A stretch of 64,000 nucleotides of DNA from contig CAXXUA010000005.1 in the NCBI GenBank assembly GCA_963663765.2, positions 1,759,874 to 1,823,873 of the forward strand. The letters run 5' to 3'. This DNA comes from Candidatus Poribacteria bacterium. GTDB taxonomy: Bacteria > Poribacteria > WGA-4E > WGA-3G. The first letter of the stretch is position 1, and each line of letters begins with the position of its first letter. The notes beneath the pieces were generated by a model. The model had not been told where the DNA came from. It made no database searches and saw only the letters and a program-made list of their open reading frames with translations. Shown here piece after piece: positions 15,782 to 33,487 of the stretch. The translations under genes were made by a program, and so were the position numbers.

Positions 15782-15810
15782 TTGACAGACGACCTAATCC
15801 ATTGTATAAT
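15782..15810 (+). promoter_or_regulatory. Perfect-consensus sigma70 promoter upstream of the grpE-hsp70-J-like cluster
   Basis: TTGACA (15782-15787), 17 nt, TATAAT (15805-15810). Confidence 0.8.
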
Positions 15811-15867
15811 CAAAAGAGACTTAGAACTGCCCCTCTAAAAAAACTCCGTTGTAAGGAGGGTTCAATT

Positions 15868-16560
15868 TTGGAAAAACAATTGAATGAAAACGACCTAAAA
15901 TCAGACATGGATATAGATACAGAAATGGATACGAATACCGTAGCAAATGCTTCTACACAAATAGATAACCCTGAAGTGTCACAACAGGGAGACCTTGCAC
16001 AGATAAATCAAACCTTGTCAACATTGCGAGATCTGTTTGACAAGCAGATTGCGCGAAACCAGAATCAGACAGAGATGTTTGATAAAATATATGCTGAAAT
16101 GAAGGAATATAAGGAGAGTTTTCTACTTGAAGTGCTTCACAAACCGGTTATCCACAACCTAATCCAACTTTACGATAGTTATGTAATGCTTGAAATGCAA
16201 CTGGACGATATATTGAGCGAAAATGAAAAAACACTGCCAGATGAACTGACGCAATTTCGGAAGAATTTGGAGAATTTTCGGTTTATTCTGGAGGAGGTGT
16301 TATACCGCATGGACGTGACTCCCTATAAGGATTCTCTGGATACACTTGATCGGCAGTTGCACAAGACGCGCAAGGTGATACCTTCAGATGACCCGCAACA
16401 GGATCAGAAAATCGCAGAAGTTCACAAGATTGGGTTTCATTGGCGAGAGAAAGTGTTCAGACCAGAAGAGGTGACGATATTTCGTAATACTACCCAAAAA
16501 ACTGATACCTCAATAAATGAATCTCCTTCCAGTGAGAAAGGAGGTAGAAGGGATGGGTAA
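15868..16560 (+). CDS. grpE: GrpE-like nucleotide exchange factor
   Basis: Long coiled coil, LIQLYDS (LL..D motif), D.QLH, IAEVHKIGF...KVFRPEEVTI; AAGGAGG RBS before TTG at 15868; overlaps the hsp70 start. Confidence 0.8.
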   Translation: MEKQLNENDLKSDMDIDTEMDTNTVANASTQIDNPEVSQQGDLAQINQTLSTLRDLFDKQIARNQNQTEMFDKIYAEMKEYKESFLLEVLHKPVIHNLIQLYDSYVMLEMQLDDILSENEKTLPDELTQFRKNLENFRFILEEVLYRMDVTPYKDSLDTLDRQLHKTRKVIPSDDPQQDQKIAEVHKIGFHWREKVFRPEEVTIFRNTTQKTDTSINESPSSEKGGRRDG

Positions 16561-18148
16561 AGTCGTTGGTATTGATCTCGGAACAACATTCTCTGCAATA
16601 GCGCACATCAATGAACATGGACAGGCAGAGATTGTTCCAAACTTAGAAAGTGAACGTATTACATCGTCGGTCATCATGTTTGAGGACAAGCTCGTGACCG
16701 TTGGCAAAATCGCCAAGCAAAACGCCAGAGCTGTCCCGGAACAGATCGTGGAGTTCGTCAAACGTGAGATGGGTAAGTCCAAAACAGAATACTTTCGTAC
16801 ATTTGATGCAAAGAACTATTCCCCTGAAGAACTCTCTGCCATTATCCTGACGAAACTCAAGCAGGACGCCGAAACATATCTGGACGAAGAAATTACGGAT
16901 GCTGTTATTACTGTTCCCGCTTATTTTCATGATGCGGAGCGCGAAGCAACCCGAAATGCAGGAAAAATTGCTGGGTTAAATGTCCTGCAAGTCCTCAATG
17001 AACCAACCGCTGCAGCACTTGCTTATGGCATGGATCAGCTGGGTACCAACCAAAATGTATTCGTATTTGACCTTGGTGGTGGTACGTTTGATGTGACGAT
17101 CATGAGCGTGTCCGACACTGAAATCCAGATGCTTGCAACAAACGGTGACCACAGACTTGGCGGTAAGGATTGGGATGATAAGATCATCACACATGTTGCG
17201 GAGATGTTTGAGATAGAGCACGGGGAGAACCCGTTAGAGGACCTTCACACGTATCAAGACTTACAATTGGATGCGATCACTGCGAAAGAATCTTTGTCAT
17301 TAAGGCAGCGCGCCCTCATCGTTTGCGGCTATAACGGCAAGACAACACGCGTGGAATTGACCAGAGAAAAGTTTGAACAACTCACTGCAGACCTGCTTGA
17401 AAGATGTCGTGTTTTGTGTAATGTTGTCCTGACAGAAGCAGATATGTCGTGGGAAGATATAGACAAAATCCTGTTAGTCGGTGGGTCAACTCGGATGCCG
17501 ATGGTGCGTGAGATGATAGCCGCAAGCAGCGGTAAAGAGATCAATCCTTATGAAGTCAACCCGGATGAAGTCGTGGCAATCGGTGCTGCTATTCAGGGAA
17601 CGCTCCGTCAGATTTCCGAAGGTGAGACCGAAACCGCCGATATACCGGATGCTGTCATTGAAAGATTCATCGGACCTGACGGTGCACCGAAGGTTACCGT
17701 AACTGATGGTGCGACACATAACCTTGGACTTGTCGTCCTAAACGCACAACGCGAGCATATCATCCATGTTATGATACCCAAAATGACGGCTGTGCCATGT
17801 GAAGTCGGAGATAAGTTCTTGACAGTTGACCACAATCAACCTTCGGTGTTAATTGAAGTCGTGCAGGGACTTCAACAGGATCAATTCAGAGAGAATATTG
17901 ATCACTTTGATGAGTACAAATTAGGTGAATGTACGCTTGAGTTGCCACTGGGGTTACCACAAGGGTCTCCAATTGAAGTTATCTACAAATACAACTTGCA
18001 TCAAAATCTTGAGGTATCCGCAACATCTCTCTCTGACGATGACGCAACTGCTGTCTACGACATCTTTTCCATCATTGATAGACCGACTCTCAATGAAGAG
18101 GAGGTTGCACAGGCAAAAACGGAACTACAAGATTTAATCGTTGAATAA
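16553..18148 (+). CDS. Hsp70-family protein (divergent DnaK paralog lacking most of the helical lid)
   Basis: VVGIDLGTT, AVITVPAYF, NEPTAAALAYG, VFDLGGGTFDVT, LGGKDWD, LVGGSTRMP, NPDEVVAIGAAIQ; ends about 20 aa after SBD-beta. Confidence 0.95.
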   Translation: MGKVVGIDLGTTFSAIAHINEHGQAEIVPNLESERITSSVIMFEDKLVTVGKIAKQNARAVPEQIVEFVKREMGKSKTEYFRTFDAKNYSPEELSAIILTKLKQDAETYLDEEITDAVITVPAYFHDAEREATRNAGKIAGLNVLQVLNEPTAAALAYGMDQLGTNQNVFVFDLGGGTFDVTIMSVSDTEIQMLATNGDHRLGGKDWDDKIITHVAEMFEIEHGENPLEDLHTYQDLQLDAITAKESLSLRQRALIVCGYNGKTTRVELTREKFEQLTADLLERCRVLCNVVLTEADMSWEDIDKILLVGGSTRMPMVREMIAASSGKEINPYEVNPDEVVAIGAAIQGTLRQISEGETETADIPDAVIERFIGPDGAPKVTVTDGATHNLGLVVLNAQREHIIHVMIPKMTAVPCEVGDKFLTVDHNQPSVLIEVVQGLQQDQFRENIDHFDEYKLGECTLELPLGLPQGSPIEVIYKYNLHQNLEVSATSLSDDDATAVYDIFSIIDRPTLNEEEVAQAKTELQDLIVE

Positions 18149-18231
18149 GTGCTGTTCTGAAATAACCTTATGTCAAATGTTTTTGTTTGTCTTACCGCCT
18201 CCTTCAAACCTGCTTCAAGGGAAATGAACCA

Positions 18232-19641
18232 ATGTCAAACAGGGATGAATTTATTGCCTTAGTAAACGACCTAAAAATGATTTCACCAACGATTTCTGAT
18301 GAACAACGTAAAGGTCTGCTCCATCGCGCAGTACAACGCTATGGTATTCCTATTGATGAAGCGATAGAGATATTAAAAACATCAGGATTAGTTGTAGGTG
18401 AACAAGTTAATTATTTTAAGGTCTTAGGTTTTTCAATATCTGAACTAAATGGACGAAGTGAACTGGATATTATTCAAAGTGTTGAAACGGCACATAGAAC
18501 CCTCTATAGTGCTTCGTTGACAGCAGGCGGACTCCCTCGTTCAGATGGTAGAACGCAAGAACAGTGGCGAACACTCCTGAATCAAGCGAAAGACGTACTC
18601 AGTAACCCGCAAAAGAGGAACAAACACATTGGTGAACTGAATTCCAAAAAACGTGAAGCATCAACCGTAGAGGATTTACCAAGAACAAGCACTGGTATCA
18701 CCAGACCTCAAATCCAGGTAAAAGATGCGGTTCTTTCAAAACACGAAGATGCAGTGCATTCTGTTGCATTTTCACCAGATAGCACTACTGTTGCCAGTGG
18801 TAGTGCAGACAAGACATTGTGTCTGTGGGATGTTGTGACGGGAACGGTAAAAAATACCCTTATTGGACATCAAGACATCGTCAGTTCTGTCGCGTATTCC
18901 CCGGATGGTAGCACAATCGCAAGTGGTAGTTATGATAGAACGGTACGTTTATGGGATGCAAATACTGGAGAACTAAATAAGCTACTGATAGGACATGAGG
19001 ATACCATCAGTTCTGTCGCTTATGCATCTGTTGATAGCTCAATTGCAAGTGCAAGTCATGATGGAACAATTCGTGTGTGGGATGCTGTTGATGGAGGACT
19101 TAAGAATATTCTCAAAGGACATAAAAATTGGGTGAGTTCCGTGGCGTATTCCCCGGATGGTAGTACAATCGCAAGTGGTAGTTATGATAGAATGATCGGT
19201 TTATGGGATGCTACAACAGGTCAATATAAGTACAGTTTAATTGGTCATAAGAATAGTGTTAGCTCAATAGTGTATTCACCTGATGGCAAAACATTAGCAA
19301 GTACAAGTATTTATGGATCGGTTCGTTTTTGGGACACTACCACAGGTGAACCCATTGATTTTCTTCAAGGACATCTATCTTGGTTTAACGCTATAGAATA
19401 TTCACCTGATGGTTCAACGGTGGCTTGTGGAAGTTATTACGGGGTGGTGCGTTTGTGTGACCTCAGAACGGGGAAATTCACAAATACACTTACTGGTCAT
19501 AAAACTCTGATAAATTCACTCGCTTATTCACCTTGTGGTAGGGTTCTTGTCAGTTGTAGCACGGATAAGGATGTACGTTTGTGGAATCTTACTCAGTTCA
19601 AGGAATCGCCGTTAGAACATGGTCCTGTCTTTTTTTTCTAA
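18232..19641 (+). CDS. Degenerate J-domain protein fused to a 7-bladed WD40 propeller
   Basis: Shared family N-terminus plus NYFKVLG...PRSDG...LLNQAKDVLSNPQKR; seven GH...V.SVAYSPDG..IASGSYD.TVRLWD repeats. Confidence 0.85.
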   Translation: MSNRDEFIALVNDLKMISPTISDEQRKGLLHRAVQRYGIPIDEAIEILKTSGLVVGEQVNYFKVLGFSISELNGRSELDIIQSVETAHRTLYSASLTAGGLPRSDGRTQEQWRTLLNQAKDVLSNPQKRNKHIGELNSKKREASTVEDLPRTSTGITRPQIQVKDAVLSKHEDAVHSVAFSPDSTTVASGSADKTLCLWDVVTGTVKNTLIGHQDIVSSVAYSPDGSTIASGSYDRTVRLWDANTGELNKLLIGHEDTISSVAYASVDSSIASASHDGTIRVWDAVDGGLKNILKGHKNWVSSVAYSPDGSTIASGSYDRMIGLWDATTGQYKYSLIGHKNSVSSIVYSPDGKTLASTSIYGSVRFWDTTTGEPIDFLQGHLSWFNAIEYSPDGSTVACGSYYGVVRLCDLRTGKFTNTLTGHKTLINSLAYSPCGRVLVSCSTDKDVRLWNLTQFKESPLEHGPVFFF

Positions 19642-19700
19642 GTAACATTTATATGACCAAAGATATAGGTTCAGTCTGTTTCTGGAAAGAGGATGTTTGA

Positions 19701-21005
19701 ATGTCTAAACGTGAGGAATTTATTGCGATAATTGACGCACTCAAAATTGCTTCGCCTACAATAACCGACGAACAACGTAAGGGTTTTTTGCGGTTAGGGG
19801 TTCAGCAACACGGTCTCACTGTTGATGAAGCGACGAATATCCTTAATGCGGTAGGATTAGCTATTGGTGAACAGATAAATTACTTTGAGGTTTTGGGGAT
19901 CTCTATAGATGAAATTCAAAGTTTAGACGAATTGGCAATCGTGAACCTTGTTGAGATTGCACACAAAACACATTATAGTGCTTCGTTGCGTGCAGGTGGT
20001 CGTCCCCGTACCGATGGCAAAACAGAGGAGCAATGGCGAACACTCCTAAATCAAGCACGTGATGTGTTAGTAGACGTAGAAAAGCGACAGGAACATATCG
20101 CACTGTTGCAAAACATTGAAATTCCTTCCATTGAATCTTTTTCAGAGATAGATAATACCTCTACTGAGCAGACACAATCTATTTCGGAGCAGCATGCCCC
20201 TTCTACGCCATTAGAAAAAGGTGACATGGTTCTCATACCTGCAGGTGAATTTCAGATGGGGAGCAATGACAGAGATGCGTTCAAGGATGAAAAACCTATA
20301 CATACTGTTTATGTAGATGCTTTTTATATGGATAAATATCCTGTAACAAACGCACAATTTAAGAACTTTCTTGATGAGAATCCGCAATGGCGTAAACCGT
20401 TAAAGTGGTACGAATCGGGAAAGATTGATAAAAGAAAAATTCCCCGAAACCATCACGATGGTGAACACTTGAAACATTGGAATAAAAACGATTACCCAAG
20501 AAATGAAGCAGATCATCCGGTAACTTGGGTCAGTTGGTATGCTGCAATGGCATACTCACAGTGGATAGGAAGACGTCTTCCTACCGAAGCAGAATGGGAA
20601 AAGGCCGCACGCGGTGGTTTGACAGGTGAAAAATATCCATGGGGAAGTACTATTGATGCAAGTTATCTAAACTATGACGCATACATCGGTAAAACAACAG
20701 CTGTAGGCAATTATCCTCCGAACAATTTCGGCTTATGTGATATGATAGGCAATGTATATGAATGGTGTCTGGACGAATGGAATAAGAACTTCTATGTGCA
20801 GTCTCCACGTGAAAATCCGATTTCAGGGGATAGCATAATCCAAGTCATGAATAACTTCACTGACATAAAAACATCTCGTGTTATACGTGGCGGTTCTTGT
20901 GTGAGTATACCTCAGAACGTCAGGGTGACATACCGTTCGCGCAATACACCAAGGTATACATGCTTCAGCATTGGGTTTCGTTGTGTGATGCCAGTTCAAT
21001 CTTGA
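19701..21005 (+). CDS. J-like + FGE-sulfatase (SUMF1/CLec-fold) domain protein, paralog 1
   Basis: IPAGEFQMG, PVTNAQF, HPV..VSWY.A, RLPTEAEWEKAARGG, GNV.EWC, RVIRGGS, GFRC; FGE catalytic Cys pair absent. Confidence 0.9.
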   Translation: MSKREEFIAIIDALKIASPTITDEQRKGFLRLGVQQHGLTVDEATNILNAVGLAIGEQINYFEVLGISIDEIQSLDELAIVNLVEIAHKTHYSASLRAGGRPRTDGKTEEQWRTLLNQARDVLVDVEKRQEHIALLQNIEIPSIESFSEIDNTSTEQTQSISEQHAPSTPLEKGDMVLIPAGEFQMGSNDRDAFKDEKPIHTVYVDAFYMDKYPVTNAQFKNFLDENPQWRKPLKWYESGKIDKRKIPRNHHDGEHLKHWNKNDYPRNEADHPVTWVSWYAAMAYSQWIGRRLPTEAEWEKAARGGLTGEKYPWGSTIDASYLNYDAYIGKTTAVGNYPPNNFGLCDMIGNVYEWCLDEWNKNFYVQSPRENPISGDSIIQVMNNFTDIKTSRVIRGGSCVSIPQNVRVTYRSRNTPRYTCFSIGFRCVMPVQS

Positions 21006-21060
21006 CGTTTTACCAATTTGAATTTATTAAAATGAACCATTTATCAAAGAGAAATATCTG

Positions 21061-22365
21061 ATGTCAAAACGCGAAGAATATATCACTCTCATAAACGAAT
21101 TTAAGACAGTTTCACCGACTATATCTGATGAACAACGCAAGGGACTGCTCCGTAGGGCTGTGCAACAGTTTGACATAGACATTGATGAGGCAGTAGATAT
21201 ATTGAATACTTCCGGATTGGCTATCGGAGAGAAGATTGATTATTTTGATGTCTTGGGTCTTTCAACTGAAGAGATGCAAAGTTTAGATGAATTGGCTATT
21301 GCTAACCGCGTTGAAACTGCACATAAGACCTTGTACAGTGCTTCATTGCGTGCAGGTGGTCGTCCGCGTGTTGACGGTAGAACAGAAGAGCAATGGCGGA
21401 TATTATTGAATCAAGCTCGGGATGTGTTAGTAGACGTAGAAAAGCGACAGGAACATATCGCACTGTTGCAAAACATTGTAATTCCTTCCATTGAATCTTT
21501 TTCAGAGATAGATAATACCTCTACTGAGCAGACACAATCTATTTCGGAGCAGCATGCCCCTTCTACGCCATTAGAAAAAGATGACATGGTTCTCATACCT
21601 GCGGGTGAATTTCAGATGGGGAGTGATGACAGATTTGATTTCAAAGAGGAAAAACCCATACATACGGTCTTTGTAGATGCTTTTTATATGGATAAATATC
21701 CAGTAACAATCGCACAATTTAAGAACTTTCTTGATGAGAATCCGCAATGGCGTAAACCGTTGAAATGGTACGAATCGGGAAAGATTACTACAGGGAATAT
21801 CCTCAGAATATATCACGATGGTGAATACTTGAAACATTGGTATAAAAACGATTACCCAAGAGGAGAAGAACAGCATCCGGTAACTTGGGTCAGTTGGTAT
21901 GCTGCGATGGCATACTCACAGTGGGTAGGAAGACGTCTTCCTACCGAAGCAGAATGGGAAAAGGCAGCACGGGGTGGATTAGTGGGTGAAAAATATCCAT
22001 GGGGAAGTACTATTGATGCAAGTTATTTAAACTTTGGCGCATTCATCAGTAAAACAACAGTTGTAGGCAATTATCCCCCAAACAACTATGGTTTATATGA
22101 TATGATAGGCAATGTATATGAATGGTGTCTGGATGAATGGAATAAAAACTTCTATGTACAGTCCCCACGCGACAATCCGATTTCAGGGGATAGCATAATG
22201 GACACTGTGAATTACTTTACTGACATAAAAACATCTCGTGTTATACGCGGCGGTTCTTATGTGAGTACTCCTCAGAACGTCAGGGTAGCACACCGTTCAC
22301 GCAATACACCAAGATATACATGTTCCAGCATCGGTTTTCGTTGTGTGATGTCAGTTAAATCTTGA
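21061..22365 (+). CDS. J-like + FGE-sulfatase domain protein, paralog 2 (chimera of paralog 3 N-terminus and paralog 1 C-terminus)
   Basis: Same motifs; DNA near-identical to 22421+ at the 5' end and to 20061+ afterwards. Confidence 0.9.
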   Translation: MSKREEYITLINEFKTVSPTISDEQRKGLLRRAVQQFDIDIDEAVDILNTSGLAIGEKIDYFDVLGLSTEEMQSLDELAIANRVETAHKTLYSASLRAGGRPRVDGRTEEQWRILLNQARDVLVDVEKRQEHIALLQNIVIPSIESFSEIDNTSTEQTQSISEQHAPSTPLEKDDMVLIPAGEFQMGSDDRFDFKEEKPIHTVFVDAFYMDKYPVTIAQFKNFLDENPQWRKPLKWYESGKITTGNILRIYHDGEYLKHWYKNDYPRGEEQHPVTWVSWYAAMAYSQWVGRRLPTEAEWEKAARGGLVGEKYPWGSTIDASYLNFGAFISKTTVVGNYPPNNYGLYDMIGNVYEWCLDEWNKNFYVQSPRDNPISGDSIMDTVNYFTDIKTSRVIRGGSYVSTPQNVRVAHRSRNTPRYTCSSIGFRCVMSVKS

Positions 22366-22420
22366 CGTTTTACCGACACAATTCTGTCCAAAATAATTTT
22401 TTATCAAAGAGAAATATCTG

Positions 22421-23647
22421 ATGTCAAAACGCAAAGAATATATCACTCTCATAAACGAATTTAAGACGGTTTCACCGACAATTTCTGATGAACAACGCAA
22501 GGGACTGCTCCGTAGGGCTGTGCAACAGTTTGACATAGACATTGATGAGGCAGTAGATATATTGAATACTTCCGGATTGGTTATCGGTGAGAAGATTGAT
22601 TATTTTGATGTCTTGGGTCTTTCAACTGAAGAGATGCAAAGTTTAGATGAATTGGCTATTGCTAACCGCGTTGAAACTGCACATAAGACCTTGTACAGTG
22701 CTTCATTGCGTGCAGGTGGTCGTCCGCGTGTTGACGGTAGAACAGAAGAGCAATGGCGGATATTATTGAATCAAGCTCGGGATGTGTTAGTAGACCCACA
22801 AAAACGGCACACACACCTTACAACATTACAAGATAGTGAAGAAACATTAATAGACACCTCCACAGTACCTTTACATCTTGATGACGAGATGGAACTTATT
22901 CCTGCAGGTGAATTTGAAATGGGTGGCAGTGATAACGAAGCATTTAATGATGAACAACCTGTACACACTGTCTTTGTGGATGCATTCTATATGGACAAAA
23001 ATCCTGTAACAAATGCGCAATTTAAAGCATTCGTTGATGTGAACCCGCAATGGAACAAACCTCAAGGATTAAGTAAATTTCTACCTGCAAAACACCACGA
23101 TGGTTACCTCCTCCACCATTGGCATAGGAACAACTATTTGGAGGGACAAGCGAACCATCCAGTCGTTCACATTAGTTGGTATGCAGCAATGGCTTATGCA
23201 GAATGGATCGATAAACGTCTACCGACAGAAGCGGAATGGGAAAAGGCAGCTCGTGGTGGATTAGTAGGTAAAAAATATCCGTGGGGAGATCTCATTGATA
23301 CCACAAAAGCAAACTTCGGTAAAAACATCGGATCCACGACACCTATTGGAGAGTATCCCTCAAACGAGTTCGATTTATATGATATGTCGGGGAATGTATG
23401 GGAATGGTGTCTTGATGAATGGGATGAACACTTCTACGCATCATCACCAAGTGAAAACCCCGTTGCAAGTAACAGTATTAGCGGAATAATAAATCATTAC
23501 AGAGATTCTAAAGCGCTACGTATACTGCGTGGCGGTTCATGGTACAATAAGGTGCAGAACATACGAACCGCAAAACGTTCTGCTGCGCTACCAACTTTTG
23601 CAAATTCTAACATCGGTTTTCGTTGTGTAAAACCTATAACGACTTAA
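22421..23647 (+). CDS. J-like + FGE-sulfatase domain protein, paralog 3
   Basis: Same N-terminal module; RLPTEAEWEKAARGG, RILRGGSW, NIGFRC. Confidence 0.9.
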   Translation: MSKRKEYITLINEFKTVSPTISDEQRKGLLRRAVQQFDIDIDEAVDILNTSGLVIGEKIDYFDVLGLSTEEMQSLDELAIANRVETAHKTLYSASLRAGGRPRVDGRTEEQWRILLNQARDVLVDPQKRHTHLTTLQDSEETLIDTSTVPLHLDDEMELIPAGEFEMGGSDNEAFNDEQPVHTVFVDAFYMDKNPVTNAQFKAFVDVNPQWNKPQGLSKFLPAKHHDGYLLHHWHRNNYLEGQANHPVVHISWYAAMAYAEWIDKRLPTEAEWEKAARGGLVGKKYPWGDLIDTTKANFGKNIGSTTPIGEYPSNEFDLYDMSGNVWEWCLDEWDEHFYASSPSENPVASNSISGIINHYRDSKALRILRGGSWYNKVQNIRTAKRSAALPTFANSNIGFRCVKPITT

Positions 23648-23855: not shown

Positions 23856-25229
23856 ATGCACGAACGCGATGCGTTTATTACCTTCATCAATCAACTCAAA
23901 GCAGTCTCACCGACTATAACTGATGAACAACGCAAGGGGTTTTTACGGTTAGGGGTACAGCAGCATGGACTCACTGTTGAAGAAGCAATGAATATCCTCA
24001 ATGCGGCTGGACTGACTATCGGTGAACGGATTGATTACTTTGAGGTCTTGGGGATCTCTATAGATGAAATTCAAAGAATAGACGAATTGGCAATCGTGAA
24101 CCGTGTAGAGATTGCTCACAAACAACTTTATGCTGCTTCGTTGCGTGCAGGAGGACGTCCGCGTTCAGATGGCAGGTCAGAAGATCAGTGGCGGACACTC
24201 CTAAATCAAGCACGTGATACTTTAATAGAACCACAAAAAAGAAACGCATACTTGGATACATTGCTGTCTGAAAGCGACAGATTTGAAAGTGCTATGGATG
24301 ATTCTCCGCAAGTTATTACGGAAACTCAATCTACCGAAGCAGACACTGATGAACCGGCAATTCCAGAAGTGGACACACTACCAGGAAAGCAAAATGATCA
24401 AACGGTTATTCCTGATTCAATCCAGTTAATTACCGATGTACCCGACGATATGTCACTCATTCCAGCAGGAGAATTTCGTATGGGGAGTAATGACGAAGAA
24501 GCAAACGATGACGAACAACCAGTACATACCGTTTTTCTTGATGCATTTCTTATAGATAAATATCCAGTGACAAACGAGCAATTTAAAGGATTTGTTGATA
24601 AGAATCCACAATGGCGCAAACCAGTGAAATGGTACGAACTTGGAAAGACTGGTGCTGCGTATATCTCCAAAGAATTCCACGATGGGTATTACCTTCACCA
24701 TTGGAATACGCACAATTATTTGAAGGAACATACGAATCATCCAGTCGTTCATATTAGTTGGTACGCAGCGTTAGCGTATGCACAGTGGGTAGGCAAACGC
24801 TTGCCTACGGAAGCAGAATGGGAAAAGGCAGCTCGTGGTGGATTAGTAGGTAAAAAATATCCGTGGGGTGACATTATAGACTCAACAAAAGCGAACTTTG
24901 GCAGTAATGTCGGATCAACGATAGATGTAGGAAACTATTTACCCAACGGATACGATGTGTTTGACATTACTGGTAATGTCAGTGAATGGTGCCTTGATGA
25001 GTTCGATAGAGAATTCTATAGATTTTCCAATAAACATAATCCCGTTTCAGGTGGTAATATCGTGAATATGGTAAAAGACTTTACGAAATCTAAAGCATCA
25101 CGCGTGATAAGGGGTGGTTCGTGGTACTCAGCAGAACATAAGGCACGTGTTTCAAACCGTGACGGATTATCGCCTCGGATAACAAACAGGATCGTCGGTT
25201 TTCGTTGTGTAAAACCTATAACAACTTGA
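23856..25229 (+). CDS. J-like + FGE-sulfatase domain protein, paralog 4 (long acidic linker)
   Basis: Start placed at ATG 23856 after the GAGG RBS; same motifs. Confidence 0.9.
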   Translation: MHERDAFITFINQLKAVSPTITDEQRKGFLRLGVQQHGLTVEEAMNILNAAGLTIGERIDYFEVLGISIDEIQRIDELAIVNRVEIAHKQLYAASLRAGGRPRSDGRSEDQWRTLLNQARDTLIEPQKRNAYLDTLLSESDRFESAMDDSPQVITETQSTEADTDEPAIPEVDTLPGKQNDQTVIPDSIQLITDVPDDMSLIPAGEFRMGSNDEEANDDEQPVHTVFLDAFLIDKYPVTNEQFKGFVDKNPQWRKPVKWYELGKTGAAYISKEFHDGYYLHHWNTHNYLKEHTNHPVVHISWYAALAYAQWVGKRLPTEAEWEKAARGGLVGKKYPWGDIIDSTKANFGSNVGSTIDVGNYLPNGYDVFDITGNVSEWCLDEFDREFYRFSNKHNPVSGGNIVNMVKDFTKSKASRVIRGGSWYSAEHKARVSNRDGLSPRITNRIVGFRCVKPITT

Positions 25230-25414: not shown

Positions 25415-26704
25415 ATGCAAGAACGCGAAGCTTATATTACCTTTATCAATGAGTTCAAAACAGTTTCACCGACCATAACCAATCAGCAACGTATAGGACT
25501 TCTGCAACGTGCAGTACAGCAACATGGACTTTCGGTTGATGAGGCATCTGAAATTCTGAATGCCGCGGGAATGATTGTTGGTGAAATGGATAACTTTTTT
25601 GAGGTATTAGGCATTTCAATTGAACAGATTCATGAACTTGAAGACCAAACAATCGTGAACATTGTTAAAGCAGCACACGACAAGCACTATAGAACATCGT
25701 TGGCTGCAGGTGCAAGAATACGTCCCGACGGCAAAACAGAAGAACAGTGGAGGATGTTACTAAATCACGCACGTGATACATTGATAGACACAAATAAGAG
25801 AGCAGAGCATATTGCAATGCTCAGGAAGGATAATCAAGACTTAGAAGCAGTTACTTTGCCCCTCTCCGATTTAACTGATTTCGACACAACACGTCAAGGA
25901 TTAAGCTATTACACAATACCAGATGATGTTGAAATACCTGATGGCATGGTGTACATCCCAGAAGGTGAATTTCAAATGGGCAGCGATGACGAAGAAGCAA
26001 ACGATGACGAACAGCCAGTACATACCGTCTATCTTGATGCATTTCTAATGGATAGATATCCGGTAACAAATGCAGAATTTAAAGCATTTCTTAATGCAAA
26101 CATTCAGACGTTGAGACCTGAATGGTTAAAAGAAAGTAATAAAAAAACCTATTTTGTAAAAGAACTTTTAAGGTATTGGCATAACGGTATGTTTCCATAC
26201 GGTAAAGACGATCATCCTATCATTGGTGTAAGTTGGTATGCAGCAATGATATACGCGGAATGGTCAGGAAAACGCTTGCCAACAGAAGCAGAATGGGAAA
26301 AGGCCGCACGCGGTGGCTTAGTAGGTAAAAAGTATCCATGGGGGGATTCTACCGATTCAGACACCTTCGAATCTACCTATGAAGTAGAGAGTACTGTTCC
26401 GGTCGGTCTGTCAAATGTAAATGGTTATGGACTTTACGATATAAGTGGAAATGTCTGGGAGTGGTGTCTTGATGCATACAGTGCTATGTTCTATGCAATT
26501 TATCCACAACAAAACCCAATTTCAGATATTAACAGCGTGGAATGGGTCGCAAGTAATTATCACCGAGTGAATTCTCCACGTGTACTCCGCGGAGGTCCGT
26601 GGGGGACTGAATCCAAAGGTGTACGAGTATCTCATCGTTTCAGTAGCAATCCCATTGACACATTGCCCACCTTTGGTTTTCGCTGTGTAAAGGGAATACC
26701 CTAA
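25415..26704 (+). CDS. J-like + FGE-sulfatase domain protein, paralog 5
   Basis: NFFEVLG...RIRPDG...LLNHARDTL; FGE motifs. Confidence 0.9.
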   Translation: MQEREAYITFINEFKTVSPTITNQQRIGLLQRAVQQHGLSVDEASEILNAAGMIVGEMDNFFEVLGISIEQIHELEDQTIVNIVKAAHDKHYRTSLAAGARIRPDGKTEEQWRMLLNHARDTLIDTNKRAEHIAMLRKDNQDLEAVTLPLSDLTDFDTTRQGLSYYTIPDDVEIPDGMVYIPEGEFQMGSDDEEANDDEQPVHTVYLDAFLMDRYPVTNAEFKAFLNANIQTLRPEWLKESNKKTYFVKELLRYWHNGMFPYGKDDHPIIGVSWYAAMIYAEWSGKRLPTEAEWEKAARGGLVGKKYPWGDSTDSDTFESTYEVESTVPVGLSNVNGYGLYDISGNVWEWCLDAYSAMFYAIYPQQNPISDINSVEWVASNYHRVNSPRVLRGGPWGTESKGVRVSHRFSSNPIDTLPTFGFRCVKGIP

Positions 26705-26766: not shown

Positions 26767-28122
26767 ATGTCTAAACGTGAAGAATTCATTCAAGTTATTA
26801 ACACCTTCAAGACTGTATCACCAAGTATTACAGATATTCAACGCCGCGGACTGTTGAAACAAGCGGTACAAAATTATGACCTATCGGTTGAAGAAGCATC
26901 TGAAATTCTGAAGTCTCTGGGGTTGATGGTCGGTGATGAACTAAACTACTTTGAAGTGTTAGAACTTTCTATAGAAGACTTACAAGACCAGAGTGAGGAC
27001 GCAATTATAATCAGCGTTAATGAGGCACATACGAAATCCTATAGCGCCTCGTTACGTGCAGGTGGACGTCCGCGTTCAGATGGCAGGTCAGAAGATCAGT
27101 GGCGGACACTCCTAAATCAAGCACGTGATACTTTAATAGACCCACAAAAAAGAAACGCATACTTGGATACATTTCTGCCTGAAAGCGACAGATTTGAGAC
27201 AACTACGGATGATTCTCCGCAAGTTAATACGGAAACTCAATCTACTGAAGCAGACACTGATGAACCGGCAATTCCAGAAGAGGACACACTACCAACAAAG
27301 CAAAATGATCAAACGGTTATTCCTGATTCAATCCAGTTAATTGTGGATGTACCCGATAATATGACACTTATTCCAGCAGGAGAATTTCGGATGGGGAGTA
27401 ATGAGGAGAAGGCAAATGAGCGTGAAAAACCTGTACATACAGTCTATATTGATACGTTCTGCATAGATCAATACTTGGTAACCAATGCACAGTATAAAGA
27501 ATTCATTGATGCAAACCCGCAGTGGCGTAAACCGCAATGGTTCAAAAAACATATCTCTATAGCACACCACAATGGTTCGTACTTGAGGCATTGGTCAGGT
27601 GATGACTTTCCGGATGGAAAAGATGATCACCCAGTCACTCGGATCAGTTGGTATGCTGCGATGGCATACTCACAATGGGTCGGCAAACGTCTTCCAACCG
27701 AAGCAGAATGGGAAAAAGCAGCGCGCGGTGGGTTAGAGGGAAAGAAATATCCATGGGGGGATTCAATCGGCCGTGGTAAAGCAAACTACTTCTATCATAC
27801 ACGCGGCACGACACCCGTTGGTCGTTATCCAGCAAACAGATACGATTTATTTGATCTGTGTGGTAATGTATGGGAGTGGTGTCTTGATGCATACAATGCT
27901 GAGTTCTATGCAAATTCACCCCACCGGAATCCGTATTTTAATGAGCAAAATATTGAATGGGTAATCGTTAACTACAAAGACATAAAAACTGCTCGCGTTT
28001 TGCGTGGAGGTTCTTGGAGTGTTGATGCACAAGGTGCTCGGGTCGCATACCGATTCAGAAGTGGACCCGCAGACACTCTACCGATTTTCGGTTTTCGTTG
28101 TGTAAAGGAAGTAACTATGTAA
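26767..28122 (+). CDS. J-like + FGE-sulfatase domain protein, paralog 6 (N-terminus like paralog 7, linker like paralog 4)
   Basis: Start at MSKREEF; FGE motifs. Confidence 0.9.
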   Translation: MSKREEFIQVINTFKTVSPSITDIQRRGLLKQAVQNYDLSVEEASEILKSLGLMVGDELNYFEVLELSIEDLQDQSEDAIIISVNEAHTKSYSASLRAGGRPRSDGRSEDQWRTLLNQARDTLIDPQKRNAYLDTFLPESDRFETTTDDSPQVNTETQSTEADTDEPAIPEEDTLPTKQNDQTVIPDSIQLIVDVPDNMTLIPAGEFRMGSNEEKANEREKPVHTVYIDTFCIDQYLVTNAQYKEFIDANPQWRKPQWFKKHISIAHHNGSYLRHWSGDDFPDGKDDHPVTRISWYAAMAYSQWVGKRLPTEAEWEKAARGGLEGKKYPWGDSIGRGKANYFYHTRGTTPVGRYPANRYDLFDLCGNVWEWCLDAYNAEFYANSPHRNPYFNEQNIEWVIVNYKDIKTARVLRGGSWSVDAQGARVAYRFRSGPADTLPIFGFRCVKEVTM

Positions 28123-28295
28123 TTGACAATCCTCTTTTCATCGTCTAATTATACATGGTATTATATTTATTCATTATCACCTTGTATAGTAGTACTTCAC
28201 CAATTTAAAATTGCTATTTGTCAAATCCTATGCTAAAATTCGGTTGATTAATGTAATATTAGAAACTGTTTTCAATTCCTTGTGTTTTCTTGTGT

Positions 28296-28567
28296 TATAG
28301 TAGATTTTAGAATTATTATTACACTTTCAGGTGTAGGAGGGAACTCCGATTCCCGACTATCAAGACGTTCAATCGCGATTCGGAGATCGCTCCTATAGAA
28401 CAAGTGTAAACTTAATTGTATATTTCACTATATAGTAGATTTTAGAATTATTATTACACTTTCAGGTGTAGGAGGGAACTCCGATTCCCGACTATCAAGA
28501 CGTTCAATCGCGATTCGGAGATCGCTCCTACAGAACAAGTGTAAACTTAATTGTATATTTCACTATA
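28296..28567. repeat. Tandem pair of TA-ended REP-carrying MITEs
   Basis: Two head-to-tail copies sharing a TATA junction. Confidence 0.75.
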
Positions 28568-28793
28568 AAGTAAAAAGAATTCTCCCAATGGATCATATAC
28601 TTATACCATTTTCATGTGATAATGTCTCATTAGCAGCGGAAATCTGGTAGGAGCGATCTCACGGTCGCGACCGGGAGGTCGCTCCTACCGAAGAGAGTAA
28701 CCCCCTGCCAGTAAACAGTAGAATTCCTTAATGAGACAAGATTTATTAGAATTGGTATTATGAGTCAATTTCTAACAACATAGAGGAAATATA

Positions 28794-29135
28794 ATGTATC
28801 ATATAAAGGAAATGCCAACCTACATAGCGGAACGTGTAAAAATCACACTTGGTCCTGAGGAACTCATAAAAATTGACAATGATGATCTGCTCCGATCTGT
28901 TGTCGTGGATGCCGCCGGGCGGGAGTCAGCTGTTCTTTTGCAGCAGATTCAGGATAAGCATGTAGATTACTCTGATTTGCTTGATAAACAAAGTAATCAA
29001 GATGATATGAGTTTTATATTTAAGGCAATTCTAAATAAAGCTTTAGCAGATTCCACCATCACTGAATCCGTCACTATCTTGAAAAAAGAACAGAAGTTTT
29101 TGCGAGAACAAGCAGAGGTAAGGCAATCTGCTTGA
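28794..29135 (+). CDS. Hypothetical helical protein inside the paralog array
   Basis: 113-aa ORF with GAGG RBS; no family recognised. Confidence 0.5.
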   Translation: MYHIKEMPTYIAERVKITLGPEELIKIDNDDLLRSVVVDAAGRESAVLLQQIQDKHVDYSDLLDKQSNQDDMSFIFKAILNKALADSTITESVTILKKEQKFLREQAEVRQSA

Positions 29136-29962
29136 AATTTCAAAACCACGTATATTAGAACCTCCGGTTGGTCTGATGGAACACTAAAAATATAATCAAT
29201 GTAACAAACTAAGCCTGTCTATCTAACAACATTTCATGGATGATCTAAATACTACTATAGTTAGGACATATTCCGTTTGTTACAAGTTAGTTTTCAAACG
29301 ACTTGTGCCAGTTAACTAAATGTTTATACTAAATTCACATATATTGGGTATGGTATTTAACATTTCGTCCCATAGGCGTCAATTTAAGGGTTTTGACCTC
29401 TTGTAGGAGGGGTTTTCAACCCCGATTTGAGAGAAAATGAACATAAAATCGGGGTTGAAAACCCCTCCACAAGAGAAAATGCCAACACTTTTTTCTTAAA
29501 TTGACGCCTATGGGTATATAAACATTTCGTCCCTACAGGATAAAGATCATCCAAAGCAAAAGACGGGACGGTTAAATCCTCTTGTCTATGACTGGGTTTT
29601 TCCGAAGTAAAAATTACCAATTTTACCAATTAGTAACTTATAGTAGATTTTAGAATTATTTTTACACTTCTTCTGTAGGAGGGAACTCCGATTCCCGACT
29701 GTCAAGGCGTTCAGTCGCGATTCGGAGATCGAAATCAACGGTATGAATGCCTATTGGCATTCCCCGCCTACAGAACAAGTGTAAACTTAATTGTATATTT
29801 TACTATAAACTATGAAGTTAATCTTCAATACCTTCGCCAATAATAGACATTCTTCCAGATTGTGCGGGCAGTTGTAGCACATTCTGCCAGATTGTGCCTA
29901 TAAATTATTCTGTCAGATTGCTGATATAGTCATTTCTATTGTCAAATTAGAGGATGTGATAA

Positions 29963-30426
29963 CAGGGTTATTCAGTTTTCAAAATTATTGATAATATTTT
30001 GCTATGTCGTTAATTTTATGTGTTGCCATCTTGTCCATGTCTTTAGTCCCGTAGGGACGATATGTTTATAGAAACATGTTATCTAACCCTCTTGAGTTCC
30101 GTAGGAACGACATAGAAAAATAAACATATCGTCCCTACCAAATCAACGCCAAATGCGCGTATGGCATTTGTCGGGACTAAAGAACTGGGGAGGGTATTCG
30201 TTTTCTATAAACATATCGTCCCTACCAAATCAACGCCAAATGCGCCAAATCAACGGTATGAATGCCATTAAGGCATTCCCCGTATGGCATTTGTCGGGAC
30301 TAAAGAGCGATATTCATTTTTCAATAATCTAAAACTGATGCAGAAAGTTCGGTTAGGAAACCAAACCTGGGTATTAACTTTCAGTAAATCTCAATAACAG
30401 AAAACTCTTAAAACTAAATAACCCTG
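29963..30426. mobile_element. ISAs1-type MITE carrying AGTCCCGTAGGGAC REPs
   Basis: Ends CAGGGTTATTCAGTTTT and AAAACTAAATAACCCTG match the ISAs1 TIRs. Confidence 0.75.
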
Positions 30427-30763
30427 CTATGATAAAAAAATACTTCAACGAAAACCTGAAGTTATTTTTATTTATATAATCCTAACAATATCACAGAGCA
30501 ATGGTAGATCAACACTATATACTCATTCAACTGAAGCACTCAAAAATGGCGAAGGTATTGTAATCTTGAATTGTTGATTCAAGAAGTAGTCGTTGCACAT
30601 TTAGTTCCTGACTGGTTTCTACAACTTGTGGAGTTAGTTGCCAAACGTTACGGTTTAAAGGTCCCTATTAACAGGTCTCATCTTGCGGAATTACCTACTT
30701 GGTAATACGAACACATAAAAGATCAGATTCTTATATTAGCATTTAACAGAGAGAAATTAACAG

Positions 30764-32089
30764 ATGTCTAAACGAGAAGAATTCATTCAAGTTGTTAACA
30801 CCTTCAAGACTGTAACACCAAGCATTACAGATATTCAACGGCGTGGTCTGTTGAAACAAGCGGTACAAAATTATGACCTATCGGTTGAAGAAGCATCTGA
30901 AATTCTGAAGTCTCTGGGGTTGATGGTCGGTGATGAACTAAACTACTTTGAAGTGTTAGAACTTTCTATAGAAGACTTACAAGACCAGAGTGAGGACGCA
31001 ATAATAATCAGCGTTAATGAGGCACATACGAAATCCTACAGCACCTCGTTACGTGCAGGTGGACTTCCACGTCCTGACGGTAGAACACAGGAACAGTGGC
31101 GGACGGTGCTAAACCAAGCACGCAATACTCTAATAAACCCATTTAAACGAAAAGCATATTTGGATACGCTTCTGACCGAAGAATCTATTTTAGAGATTAC
31201 TCCAAATAACATCTCTAATCCTCAAGTGGATGTTCTTCAAACTGAACCGGAAAAATCGACAGCAGAAGCTCAAAATATTACAGCAACAGCGATTAAGACT
31301 GTCTCAAGTTCAGACTTAACAACTGTCCCTCCTGATATGACTGTACCTGATGATATGGTTTTTATCCCCGCAAGTGAGTTTCAGATAGGTAGGCAGTCAG
31401 AAGCGGGAAATGGCAGAAAATTGACTCATCAGACTGTATACTTAGGGGCATTTTTTATTGACAAATATCCTGTTACCAATACACAATATAAGAAATTTCT
31501 GGATGCAAACCCGGAATGGCAGAAAAACAGCATCTTTCAAAGATACCATGATGGAAGTTATCTCCAATCATGGCGTAACAGTAACTATCCTCGAGGGAAA
31601 GCGGAGTATCCAGTTGTTGATGTGAGTTGGTATGCAGCAATGGCTTATGCAGATTGGGCAGGAAAACGTTTGCAAACGGAAGTGGAGTGGGAAAAGGCAG
31701 CCCGCGGCGGATTAACCGGAAAAATATATCCATGGGGAGATGAAATTGATATGAGTATAGCGAATTACGGGGTGCAGTACGGAAGTACAACGCCTGTCGG
31801 GAAATACCCACCAAACGACTATGGTATTTATGACGCAGTAGGTAACGTTTGGGAATGGTGTCTTGATGCACATAACGATAATTCCACACACAGCAGTTCC
31901 AATTTAGCAGAAAACAGTGTTGATAAGATCACTAAAAACTATTTGGCAATTGAAACCGCTCGTGTGTTACGAGGAGGTTCTTGGGCAAGTAGTGAACGCG
32001 CTACACAGATCGCTTATGTTGGATGGGCTGCCCCAAGTTTTACACGTTACAATTACGGCTTTCGATGTATAAAAGAAATAAGTCTGTAA
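30764..32089 (+). CDS. J-like + FGE-sulfatase domain protein, paralog 7
   Basis: Same module; RLQTEVEWEKAARGG, RVLRGGSW, YGFRC. Confidence 0.9.
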   Translation: MSKREEFIQVVNTFKTVTPSITDIQRRGLLKQAVQNYDLSVEEASEILKSLGLMVGDELNYFEVLELSIEDLQDQSEDAIIISVNEAHTKSYSTSLRAGGLPRPDGRTQEQWRTVLNQARNTLINPFKRKAYLDTLLTEESILEITPNNISNPQVDVLQTEPEKSTAEAQNITATAIKTVSSSDLTTVPPDMTVPDDMVFIPASEFQIGRQSEAGNGRKLTHQTVYLGAFFIDKYPVTNTQYKKFLDANPEWQKNSIFQRYHDGSYLQSWRNSNYPRGKAEYPVVDVSWYAAMAYADWAGKRLQTEVEWEKAARGGLTGKIYPWGDEIDMSIANYGVQYGSTTPVGKYPPNDYGIYDAVGNVWEWCLDAHNDNSTHSSSNLAENSVDKITKNYLAIETARVLRGGSWASSERATQIAYVGWAAPSFTRYNYGFRCIKEISL

Positions 32090-32128: not shown

Positions 32129-33487
32129 GTGTCTAAACGAGAAGAATTCATCACTGCAATAAATATCCTCCGAGCTGCCTCTCCATCAATTTCACCTGTA
32201 CAGCGCAAGGGTCTTCTCCAGCAAGCAGTACAAGAACACGGTCTCTCCGTTGAAGAAGCAGATGAGATACTAAAATCATCAGGGTTAATTGTTGGAGAAA
32301 GTGTAAATTACTTTCAAGTTCTTGGTTTATCCATTGAAGAACTTCAAGATCTGGGTGAAGATACGATTGCAACTCGTGTTGATGCAGCACATCAGAAATA
32401 CTATAGCGACTCGTTACGTGCAGGTGGACTCCCACGGCCTGACGGTAGAACACAGGAACAGTGGCGAACTGTGCTAAACCAAGCACGCGACATCTTGAAA
32501 GACCCACTTAAACGTGCTGAACACATCGCAACGTTACAAAATGCTGACTGGGATATTAATAATCCTATCATTCAAAAGGATATACATACACCAAAACAAA
32601 CATCTATTACACATTCAGTTCCGGACAATATGGTACACATTCCTGCTGGAGAGTTCCAAATAGGTAACAACAAAAGAGCAAATGATCGTTATAAACCAGA
32701 AAACACAGTCTATGTTGATTCGTTCTATATGGATAAATATCCAGTTACGAACGCACAATATAAAATATTTCTTGAAGCCAATCCACATTGGCGTAAATCA
32801 TCAAAATGGCCTGAGTGGAATAAGGCAAGAAAGAGGATAATGTCTACATTGTTTATCTATAGTAAATATCATGATGGTAATTATCTAAAACATTGGAATG
32901 GTGTTAATTTCCCAAATGGCAAAACAGATCATCCTGTAACACATGTGAGTTGGTATGCTGCGATGGCTTATGCAGAATGGGCAGGTAAACGTTTGCCATC
33001 AGAAGCGGAGTGGGAAAAGGCAGCCCGCGGCGGACAGACAGGTCAAAAATACCCATGGGGAGATGAACTCAATTCAAGTATGGCATATTGCGCAAAGGGG
33101 GTGGGAGTAACCACTTCTGTAGGACAATATCCTCCAAATGACTACGGTTTACACGATATTGTAGGGAACGTCTGGGAGTGGTGTCTTGATGAATATACAC
33201 CGAATTTTTTTGCCTCTGCTTCGGATCGAAATCCAGTTGCTGGCGTAAATACAGAAAAGGAGTTAGGACAATTATACTCCTATTATAGAAAAGTTTCAAC
33301 GGATCGCGTCTTGCGGGGAGGTTCTCTGTTTACTACTTCTGAACCCATTCAGACAGCCATACGAAGTGGTCGTTCCCCCTTTTCCACCTCCGTACATTCA
33401 CTATATTTTAAAAACTTCTCTGCCAACTCTGCCAACTCTTCCAACATCGGATTCCGATGTGCATGGGATATAAAACTTAAGTCATAG
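32129..33487 (+). CDS. J-like + FGE-sulfatase domain protein, paralog 8
   Basis: GTG start; same motifs; SAN microrepeat in the C-terminal variable segment. Confidence 0.9.
   Translation: MSKREEFITAINILRAASPSISPVQRKGLLQQAVQEHGLSVEEADEILKSSGLIVGESVNYFQVLGLSIEELQDLGEDTIATRVDAAHQKYYSDSLRAGGLPRPDGRTQEQWRTVLNQARDILKDPLKRAEHIATLQNADWDINNPIIQKDIHTPKQTSITHSVPDNMVHIPAGEFQIGNNKRANDRYKPENTVYVDSFYMDKYPVTNAQYKIFLEANPHWRKSSKWPEWNKARKRIMSTLFIYSKYHDGNYLKHWNGVNFPNGKTDHPVTHVSWYAAMAYAEWAGKRLPSEAEWEKAARGGQTGQKYPWGDELNSSMAYCAKGVGVTTSVGQYPPNDYGLHDIVGNVWEWCLDEYTPNFFASASDRNPVAGVNTEKELGQLYSYYRKVSTDRVLRGGSLFTTSEPIQTAIRSGRSPFSTSVHSLYFKNFSANSANSSNIGFRCAWDIKLKS

Follow-up and report, generated by a model that had tools for sequence, protein, structure and literature searches.

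In a 64,000-nucleotide stretch of DNA from Candidatus Poribacteria, which are sponge symbionts (contig CAXXUA010000005.1, positions 1,759,874 to 1,823,873; the whole stretch is hereafter termed the window), a co-directional block on the + strand (15802-37696) carries a GrpE-like gene, then an Hsp70 gene and then 12 tandem paralogs (n=12, all on the + strand, within 18187-37696). The paralogs were found to contain a J-domain that is real, has diverged strongly and lacks the His-Pro-Asp (HPD) tripeptide. We give a slightly better than even chance, about 0.55, to the reading that this block of a 6.35 Mb genome encodes a self-contained, lineage-specific Hsp70 machine, in which a GrpE-like factor and a lid-less Hsp70 would be served by an array of adaptors that contact the Hsp70 at lobes IB and IIB of its nucleotide-binding domain (NBD), the whole being insulated from the housekeeping DnaK/DnaJ. 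An earlier note on this DNA, made from the letters of the window, had proposed a different contact, in which an R-x-D motif replaces HPD in the J-like domains and pairs with a co-evolved Gln at the position of DnaK R167.

A diverged J-domain with a rebuilt helix II-III loop

Each paralog is built of a conserved N-terminal module of about 140 residues, an acidic linker of 20-62 residues and a C-terminal head. With the Pfam DnaJ profile (PF00226), none of six N-terminal modules matched even at E values up to 10, and a whole-genome search with the same profile returned four genes, none of them inside the window. A profile of the 12 modules, searched against 1.84 billion representative proteins, collected only 130 at E ≤0.001 with no spill into the large J-domain family, and a profile search of PDB sequences gave only weak matches to HscB and Jac1 (E 0.15-0.34). 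Foldseek alone yielded no module match at E ≤0.001, though J-domains topped its list, and the module scores in the ESM Atlas all fell below 0.9, so that these served as leads at most.

The relationship was seen when a profile of 41 family sequences was aligned by hhalign with 13 canonical J-domains from E. coli and Poribacteria, which gave a probability of 93.2% (E 2.9e-7) over 63 columns. The AlphaFold 2 (AF2) model of the paralog 2 module, with a predicted local distance difference test score (pLDDT) of 82.9, showed a three-helix N-sub-domain at residues 3-51, followed by helices I (61-65), II (77-98), III (109-124) and IV (126-139), with a ten-residue loop (99-108, G99-T108) between helices II and III. 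Through VIA-align, this model was superposed on the J-domain of DNAJB1 with a Z score of 10.3 and a root-mean-square deviation of 1.8 Å over 71 residues, and 48 of the best 50 rows were J-domain proteins by title. Two bridging members were also identified: P0365, which clears the Pfam DnaJ cut-off (32.0 versus 27.8 bits), and P0361, a six-fold repeat of true DnaJ domains that is matched by the family profile. The profile alignment, the model and the structural superposition thus bear out the earlier note in that its J-like domains are true J-domain homologues without HPD. In many family members this J-like domain stands alone at the N-terminus, without the N-sub-domain.

The HPD tripeptide is absent from all 12 paralogs and from all 95 aligned domains, which were taken from 92 family representatives. 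As the earlier note had read, the alignment shows in every paralog L(T/R/A)AG(G/A), one residue, and then PRSDG, PRTDG, PRVDG, PRPDG or IRPDG, the loops of copies 1 to 12 being PRSDG, PRTDG, PRVDG (twice), PRSDG, IRPDG, PRSDG, PRPDG (three times), PRTDG and PRPDG. The resulting pattern, SL-x-AG(G/A)-x-(P/I)R-x-DG, is invariant in the 12 copies despite a mean module identity of 63%, and the loop recurs in most of the 95 domains, with a subset lacking PRxDG. Chance does not account for the loop.

That R-x-D stands where HPD is expected was not upheld. In the AF2 model R103-x-D105 lies within the helix II-III loop and not away from it, so that the placement named in the earlier note as a refutation was not seen, but a stable register with HPD was not obtained: hhalign pairs H-P-D with G99-G100-R101, four residues upstream of R-x-D, and HPD falls in two other registers when HMMER aligns the module to HscB and Jac1. 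By the hhalign alignment and the helix limits of DnaJ, the ten-residue loop is also longer than the HPD loop of DnaJ. The loop has been lengthened and rebuilt, no residue-for-residue counterpart of HPD can be singled out, and "R-x-D replaces HPD" is one arbitrary reading.

The divergent Hsp70 and its predicted contact with the module

The protein encoded at the head of the block scored 40.2 bits against a Pfam GrpE cut-off of 25.8 and covered profile positions 13-163 of 165, while remaining far under the NCBIfam GrpE equivalog cut-offs (about 20 bits versus 172-194). A GrpE-like homologue lies upstream of the Hsp70 in 12 other scanned loci when fused forms are counted. The Hsp70 itself is below the equivalog cut-offs of both DnaK (414 versus 648 bits, NF001413) and HscA (316 versus 708 bits, TIGR01991), and its length of 531 aa is found in most Hsp70 homologues among the matches listed.

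In a three-way alignment with E. coli DnaK and the canonical DnaK of the same genome, the ATPase motifs were intact, as had been claimed, with the catalytic and relay or allosteric residues D8, T11, T12, K70, P143, D148, R151, E171, D194, T199 and D201 invariant. The Gln at the DnaK R167 column was likewise seen (residue 146 of the 531-aa Hsp70; GLNVLQVLNEPTAAA versus GLEVKRIINEPTAAA in E. coli DnaK), and the genome's own DnaK keeps Arg there. The linker change, VLLLD to VTVTD, also stood, but the insertion before it, put at about 25 aa by the earlier note, came to a net 22 (31 versus 9 residues from the QG motif to the linker). The chain ends about 20 residues past the β substrate-binding domain (SBD-beta) with no helical lid, in agreement with the truncation noted before. 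Contacts between DnaK and DnaJ, as listed by Mayer (2021, PMC8215388), join H33 to the L391 backbone, P34 to P419, D35 to R167 and Q378, and K48 to D477. Further DnaK positions that contact the J-domain are altered in the window Hsp70, namely E206 to S, E217 to Q, D477 to K and D481 to H. Among its array relatives, R167 is replaced by Q or H, E206 by S, K, R or N, and D477 by K, S or R; the E217 column holds Q in 13 loci of the window type and E in six loci of the J-only type, and the L390 and L392 columns are polar or beta-branched.

The AF2 model of the Hsp70 (pLDDT 89.9, predicted template modelling score 0.90) contains only one short helix after SBD-beta, and the insertion before the linker is modelled as a short helix at 366-372. 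This 22-residue insertion (17600-17680, Hsp70 residues ~350-380) is kept across the family as DAVIERFIGPDG, and as DAVKDRFIGPGG in the J-only-type loci. Since it is conserved and predicted to be helical, it is probably a functional element rather than a loose spacer. The best Foldseek matches of the model were domain-docked, ATP-type states (4b9q, 5nro_A, 7krt and BiP-ATP) with template modelling (TM) scores of 0.83-0.85, versus 0.57 for the undocked 2kho; with this match, the modelled protein looks like a working two-domain Hsp70 able to dock, not a relic.

Complex prediction was carried out with the Hsp70, ATP and residues 56-142 of the paralog 2 module, that is, the J-like domain alone, using alignments built by ourselves. 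An interaction prediction score from aligned errors (ipSAE) of 0.76 was reached (0.72, 0.77 and 0.76 in the individual runs) versus 0.01 for the best of three controls, with at least 92% of the contacts in common between runs and a partner pLDDT of at least 85. The same mark had been attained in calibration for 58 of 80 solved complexes, with the interface right in 55 of the 58, and for 2 of 110 mismatched pairs; these counts apply only roughly here because our own alignments were used and the ATP ligand was included. The confident contacts comprise S93 and L96-T104 of the module and residues 63, 67-68, 80-83, 205, 209, 212-213, 216, 226, 228-229, 231, 234 and 238 of the Hsp70. In E. coli DnaK numbering the latter fall within 63-104, in lobe IB, and 230-263, in lobe IIB, both at the top of the nucleotide cleft; BAG, Hip and GrpE-type factors bind NBD lobes IB/IIB. 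Neither Gln146 nor the linker nor SBD-beta takes part in a confident contact. At 13 of the 18 contacted positions the residue is invariant in all 19 array Hsp70s, where the ORF (open reading frame) covers it, and unlike that of both DnaKs, for example L, L, Y and Q at the DnaK positions R253, P256, M259 and K263, which in the two DnaKs hold R, P/Q, M/L and K. Because the solved DnaK-J complex uses another site, this pass cannot simply be the memory of that complex. Natural fusions link the NBD to the module as well, P0286 joining it to the whole module and L076 to the N-sub-domain and a GrpE-like part; both are putative, the second (G129:C22, 4328-6310) reading in one frame through an Hsp70 NBD without its SBD, the three-helix N-sub-domain of an adaptor and a GrpE-like C-terminal part.

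Several findings weigh against a contact at lobes IB and IIB. The interface comes from one model with shallow, unpaired alignments (54 and 81 rows, the Hsp70 rows mostly >70% identical), and the same patch is the GrpE-type site, so that it may instead be conserved for the sake of the GrpE-like protein. Extra upstream Hsp70s in which R167 is unchanged have this patch too. For the two most conserved residues of the loop beyond P102 the model accounts poorly, R103 touching only L228 and neither D105 nor G106 being among the contacts listed. In addition, the AF2 model of the Hsp70 alone is docked like the DnaK-J complex (TM 0.84 to 5nro_A), and the canonical site could still form. As far as the models go, docking at the canonical site may be counted as a live rival. 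The extra Hsp70s, of 695-756 aa, lie upstream of the GrpE-like gene at L037 (5128-7260), L038 (5176-7260), L076 (2428-4515) and L085 (10628-12895); they keep Arg at the R167 position, have the linker MRISD and share the family-specific patch of lobes IB and IIB.

A canonical but re-coded contact was the model of the earlier note: the module would dock at the junction of NBD, linker and SBD-beta, R-x-D would pair with Gln167, and the altered interface would still trigger hydrolysis. Both partners have indeed changed at the canonical contact set (R167, E206, E217, L390, L392 and D477 on one side, HPD and the basic face of helix II on the other), and a charge swap is conceivable, as position 206 is K/R in 17 of 19 Hsp70s, position 477 is K/R in 17 of 19, and helix II of the module is acidic or neutral. 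The place of R-x-D within the loop and the docked state of the Hsp70 model, which is the state that J-domains recognise, also fit such a contact. However, hhalign pairs HPD with G-G-(R/L) and not with R-x-D, and all three runs of the complex model placed the loop at lobes IB and IIB, residue 146, the linker and SBD-beta being left without a confident contact. Comparison across operons bears on the same point. In array-adjacent Hsp70s of at least 400 aa with PRxDG partners, position 167 is Q in 17 and H in 2 of 19, and it is Q in all seven further array Hsp70s that could be read by pattern (one more missed the pattern). Loop and position 167 are thus nearly invariant in the family, with two informative exceptions, and the modules of both lack R-x-D: P0286, in which position 167 is still Q beside a module without PRxDG, and L076, in which it is K and all three J-like modules lack PRxDG. 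Where sequences can be compared, then, R-x-D and residue 167 show no co-variation. The profile alignment, the two exceptions and the complex model all refuse support to a co-evolved R-x-D/Gln167 contact; a re-coded canonical interface is possible, without positive support, and we consider it rather improbable.

For the self-contained machine, we propose the following course of events. An adaptor would consist of the three-helix N-sub-domain, the J-domain without HPD, an acidic and probably disordered linker of the length given above and a non-enzymatic binding head, in this array a WD40 propeller or an FGE/C-type-lectin fold. Adaptors would act as targeting factors in the manner of class C J-proteins, the head picking the target and the J-like module holding the private Hsp70. 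The end of helix II would make the contact together with the invariant helix II-III loop, which would bridge NBD lobes IB and IIB at the upper end of the cleft, in the region of exchange factors and Hip, and not at the junction of R167, linker and SBD-beta. From this predicted contact we infer that the module would tether the Hsp70 and tune the holding or exchange of nucleotide, rather than trigger hydrolysis through the linker. The loss of both halves of the canonical J-site would insulate the system from the housekeeping DnaK/DnaJ. With HPD gone from one partner, R167 and the hydrophobic linker gone from the other, and one canonical DnaK and four HPD J-proteins encoded elsewhere in the genome, a private and insulated pair is a reasonable inference. 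In a more specific and distinctly more tentative form, the J fold may have changed jobs, its loop clamping or wedging lobes IB and IIB so that the adaptors couple recognition to the holding or exchange of nucleotide, the array being a diversifying recognition repertoire of a sponge symbiont that the Hsp70 motor would read out, perhaps for the surveillance of foreign proteins or glycans.

Heads of the putative adaptors, array layout and genomic context

The head is a WD40 propeller in copy 1 and an FGE-sulfatase (formylglycine-generating enzyme, FGE) fold in the other eleven. Pfam FGE-sulfatase was matched at E 6.9e-64 to 4.9e-55 in all four FGE-type copies scanned, and all 11 were found by the genome search. 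Among solved structures, the closest to the heads were true FGEs (E 9.4e-36 to 5nxl), with SUMF2 also matched. When a head was aligned to the FGE of T. curvata, a 3-residue deletion was found at the site of the catalytic pair with no cysteines there, and a pattern search found the catalytic cysteine pair in none of the 32 FGE-fold ORFs of the genome. The genome contains 55 sulfatase matches and a radical-SAM sulfatase maturase (524.7 bits versus a cut-off of 349.45). As the FGE cysteine pair is absent and this maturase is present, the heads are probably binding domains rather than enzymes for the genome's sulfatases. A Pfam scan for fused domains in 51 family proteins found the module joined to FGE-fold, WD40, ankyrin, HEAT, TPR, PEGA+PG_binding, S1 and T2SSG partners. 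No fusion to a Zorya-type protein was seen, as MotA/ExbB and OmpA-type domains were absent from these 51 proteins, longer fused forms lying outside the search.

Mean identity is higher for the modules (63.3%) than for the heads (53.8%), with the module ahead in 51 of 55 pairs, and linkers and modules were found shuffled between the array copies (23856-28122 and 30764-34915), a pattern that suggests gene conversion or module shuffling inside the array. In copies 7 and 8 the modules are nearly identical and the heads differ, copies 5 and 7 have nearly identical long acidic linkers and different modules, and copies 9 and 10 have linker and head in common. All 12 module copies of the genome are confined to this single array by the whole-genome search. 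The same genome also encodes, at G000:C6:262078-263067, a canonical HPD J-domain and an FGE-fold domain in one 341-aa frame, and the same type of HPD J-domain is present in related genomes (L019, L020, L032 and L033). The J plus FGE-fold architecture therefore exists in both a standard and a diverged form, and the HPD-containing fusion is a possible ancestor or parallel of the array architecture. In a tree of 28 FGE-fold domains (28 of 32 rows, leaving out the fragments C2:46957 and C3:120734 as well as C5:889482 and C15:266758), the array heads and the head of the HPD fusion fell inside a supported group of 22, which is a polytomy that leaves their sister relation unsettled.

Candidate roles of the machine are the proteostasis of certain client proteins, a connection with sulfated glycans and surveillance in a conflict system. 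The last, for example against phages, would have diversifying, receptor-like heads report to an NTPase, the Hsp70; it is compatible with the self-contained machine and, taken as an explanation in its own right, we hold it for a minority possibility. The tandem mosaic array, with heads more variable than modules and shuffled linkers, and the narrow taxonomic range would suit it, and Kaur et al. (2020, PMC7159879; 2021, PMC8195603) describe FGS/FGE-fold domains and themes of Hsp70, GrpE and DnaJ fusions in NTP-dependent conflict systems. However, the matches in PADLOC-DB 2.0 were limited to a weak one of the Hsp70 to PDC-M61B (E 3e-4) and one of the WD40-head repeat to HEAT-ARM_XIII (E 7.3e-21), and none of 28 further family members matched this library, which dates from 2023, so that a defence role is compatible with the missing matches. 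The operon contains no effector such as a nuclease or protease, and the array, in many genomes found at the same chromosomal site flanked by glycan genes of housekeeping type, does not resemble a mobile defence island.

Those glycan genes bring up sulfatase biogenesis or the use of sulfated glycans, in which FGE-fold heads would bind sulfatase polypeptides, as does the inactive FGE paralog SUMF2, and the Hsp70 would keep these polypeptides unfolded so that they can be modified. The block is flanked (13298-15571 and 37764-40079) by a LamG-type lectin-fold gene, a cytoplasmic Cys-type sulfatase (CSPSR motif, without signal peptide) and a GH95 alpha-fucosidase. The sulfatase lies directly upstream and has orthologues upstream in 11 other loci, and GH95 lies downstream in 18, which, with the nearness of the heads to true FGEs and SUMF2 and the number of sulfatases in the genome, agrees with such a role. 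Against it stand the missing cysteine pair and the deletion at its site, the radical-SAM maturase, by which maturation is already covered, the WD40, ankyrin, HEAT and TPR heads carried by the same module, and the lack of a sulfatase neighbour in J-only-type loci (L034-L040); the recurring synteny is moreover one among close kin and may be inheritance only. We regard this role as unlikely.

Just as improbable is a dead J-domain of the Pam16/Tim16 type that would neither stimulate nor regulate the Hsp70, serving only as a structural or oligomerisation scaffold with the Hsp70 linked through the N-sub-domain or the adaptors being clients: HPD is absent from all 12 copies, some relatives lack even the PRxDG loop, the N-sub-domain alone is fused to the Hsp70 NBD in L076, and HPD changes abolish ATPase stimulation in every system tested, according to Mayer (2021, PMC8215388), but conservation within the module is highest in the loop, an argument for a working surface, many members have the J-like domain and no N-sub-domain, and the complex model passes with the J-like domain (56-142) by itself.

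Table 1. Coordinates of the GrpE-like gene, the Hsp70 gene and the paralog array in the window
Feature	Position	Strand	Evidence
GrpE-like nucleotide-exchange factor gene	15802..16560	+	Pfam GrpE E 3.5e-10; 3' end overlaps Hsp70 start by 8 bases
Hsp70, lid-less, divergent, 531 aa from ATG at 16553	16553..18148	+	Pfam HSP70 E 1.9e-118
Paralog 1: N-module (three-helix sub-domain + J-like domain, loop LTAGGLPRSDG) + WD40 propeller	18232..19641	+	WD40 E 2.5e-71
Paralog 2: N-module + FGE-fold head, PRTDG; copy chosen for modelling	19701..21005	+	Pfam FGE-sulfatase E 6.9e-64; AF2 model of residues 1-150
Paralog 3: N-module + FGE-fold head, PRVDG	21061..22365	+	ORF, alignment, genome search
Paralog 4: N-module + FGE-fold head, PRVDG	22421..23647	+	ORF, alignment, genome search
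Paralog 5: N-module + FGE-fold head, PRSDG	23856..25229 (ORF opens 23799)	+	ORF, alignment, genome search
Paralog 6: N-module + FGE-fold head, LAAGARIRPDG (most divergent loop)	25415..26704	+	ORF, Pfam, alignment
Paralog 7: N-module + FGE-fold head, PRSDG	26767..28122 (ORF opens 26725)	+	ORF, alignment, genome search
Spacer, 2.6 kb, low GC, splits array after copy 7	28123..30763		ORFs ≤113 aa
Paralog 8: N-module + FGE-fold head, PRPDG	30764..32089	+	ORF, Pfam, alignment
Paralog 9: N-module + FGE-fold head, PRPDG	32129..33487	+	ORF, alignment, genome search
Paralog 10: N-module + FGE-fold head, PRPDG	33551..34915	+	ORF, alignment, genome search
Paralog 11: N-module + FGE-fold head, PRTDG	34966..36273 (ORF opens 34930)	+	ORF, alignment, genome search
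Paralog 12: N-module + FGE-fold head, PRPDG	36335..37696	+	ORF, Pfam, alignment

The open frame of paralog 1 starts at 18187, with the conserved Met at 18232. The spacer after copy 7, of about 37% GC (0.367 in 28001-30000) and with no convincing gene, may be what is left of an insertion or of copies that have decayed; its 113-aa ORF had no Pfam match. Just upstream of the block, at 10442-12971, two transposase-type genes stand head to head, DDE_Tnp_1 on the - strand and a UPF0236-family gene on the + strand, and farther downstream a 657-aa ORF (41657-43630, - strand) gave no Pfam match at E ≤1e-4.

The order of a GrpE-like gene, an Hsp70 gene and then 1-11 J-like genes recurs across the related loci, of which 27 of 30 are named Candidatus Poribacteria and three "uncultured bacterium". 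Scanning the genomes of 185,579 species with the patterns of the J-only subgroup likewise returned relatives only in records with these two names. Within the phylum, a match to the divergent-subgroup profile was found in 64 of 176 genomes, most of them in one family (58 of 111) and two genera (33 of 39 and 22 of 65); a metagenome scan for this divergent group found no relative.

Significance and comparison with known systems

By the usual view, HPD defines a J-domain and cannot be dispensed with. The block offers a natural case in which a J-domain lineage has dropped HPD, gained another invariant loop, been multiplied to twelve copies and been paired with an Hsp70 that lacks the matching residues and the lid. 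It could serve as a ready-made orthogonal Hsp70/co-chaperone set for probing the need for the HPD-R167-linker relay, bears on whether the J fold can regulate Hsp70 from another site, and may reveal how, in a symbiont, a chaperone motor comes to carry a modular recognition repertoire. In the literature searched, no paper was found on a poribacterial Hsp70 whose J-like adaptors lack HPD and carry FGE or WD40 heads. A large survey of J-domain proteins (PMC10410713) states that sequences without a full HPD were cut from the main data set, HPE and other variants being analysed apart, so that an HPD-less family like this one escapes the main analysis. The HPD register problem, the two position-167 exceptions and the predicted IB/IIB interface are what the present analysis adds.

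The closest general parallel is the DnaK-DnaJ-GrpE triad with its class C J-proteins, with which the block shares three components in one operon, an intact NBD relay, a GrpE-family factor and an N-terminal J fold followed by a variable targeting domain. Unlike the triad, the system described here has no HPD, R167, hydrophobic linker or lid, and shows a 22-aa insertion, a module invisible to Pfam, a predicted docking at lobes IB and IIB and twelve adaptors in an array. HscA-HscB and HscC-DjlB/DjlC resemble it in that a second Hsp70 of the cell serves its own J-proteins only and carries NBD deletions near the J-site; they differ in keeping HPD or HPE and the lid and in needing no GrpE, whereas the Hsp70 here has its own GrpE-like gene and falls far below the HscA cut-off (316 versus 708 bits).

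A J fold without the HPD tripeptide is also found in Pam16/Tim16, Magmas and DNAJB13. These are single regulators that stand beside a true J-protein on a canonical Hsp70; here, the operon holds no HPD partner, the loop motif is new and invariant, and the Hsp70 is altered too. BAG-domain factors and Hip are similar in the region of contact, the top of the nucleotide cleft between lobes IB and IIB (the site here being a predicted one), but they share no homology with the module, in which the contact would be made by the loop of a J fold. Among conflict systems, the GAP1-N2 GTPase systems described by Kaur et al. (2020, PMC7159879) combine a non-housekeeping Hsp70, GrpE and DnaJ-fused FNIII proteins in one neighbourhood, with some of the Hsp70s lacking a peptide-binding domain as do L076 and P0286. 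Those systems lie beside GTPases in Actinobacteria and Firmicutes and have a recognisable DnaJ domain, in contrast to the block described here, in which there is no GTPase. Finally, SUMF2 (pFGE) shares with the heads an FGE fold without the catalytic cysteine pair, but is a free-standing protein of the eukaryotic endoplasmic reticulum, whereas the fold here forms the head of what would be a chaperone adaptor.

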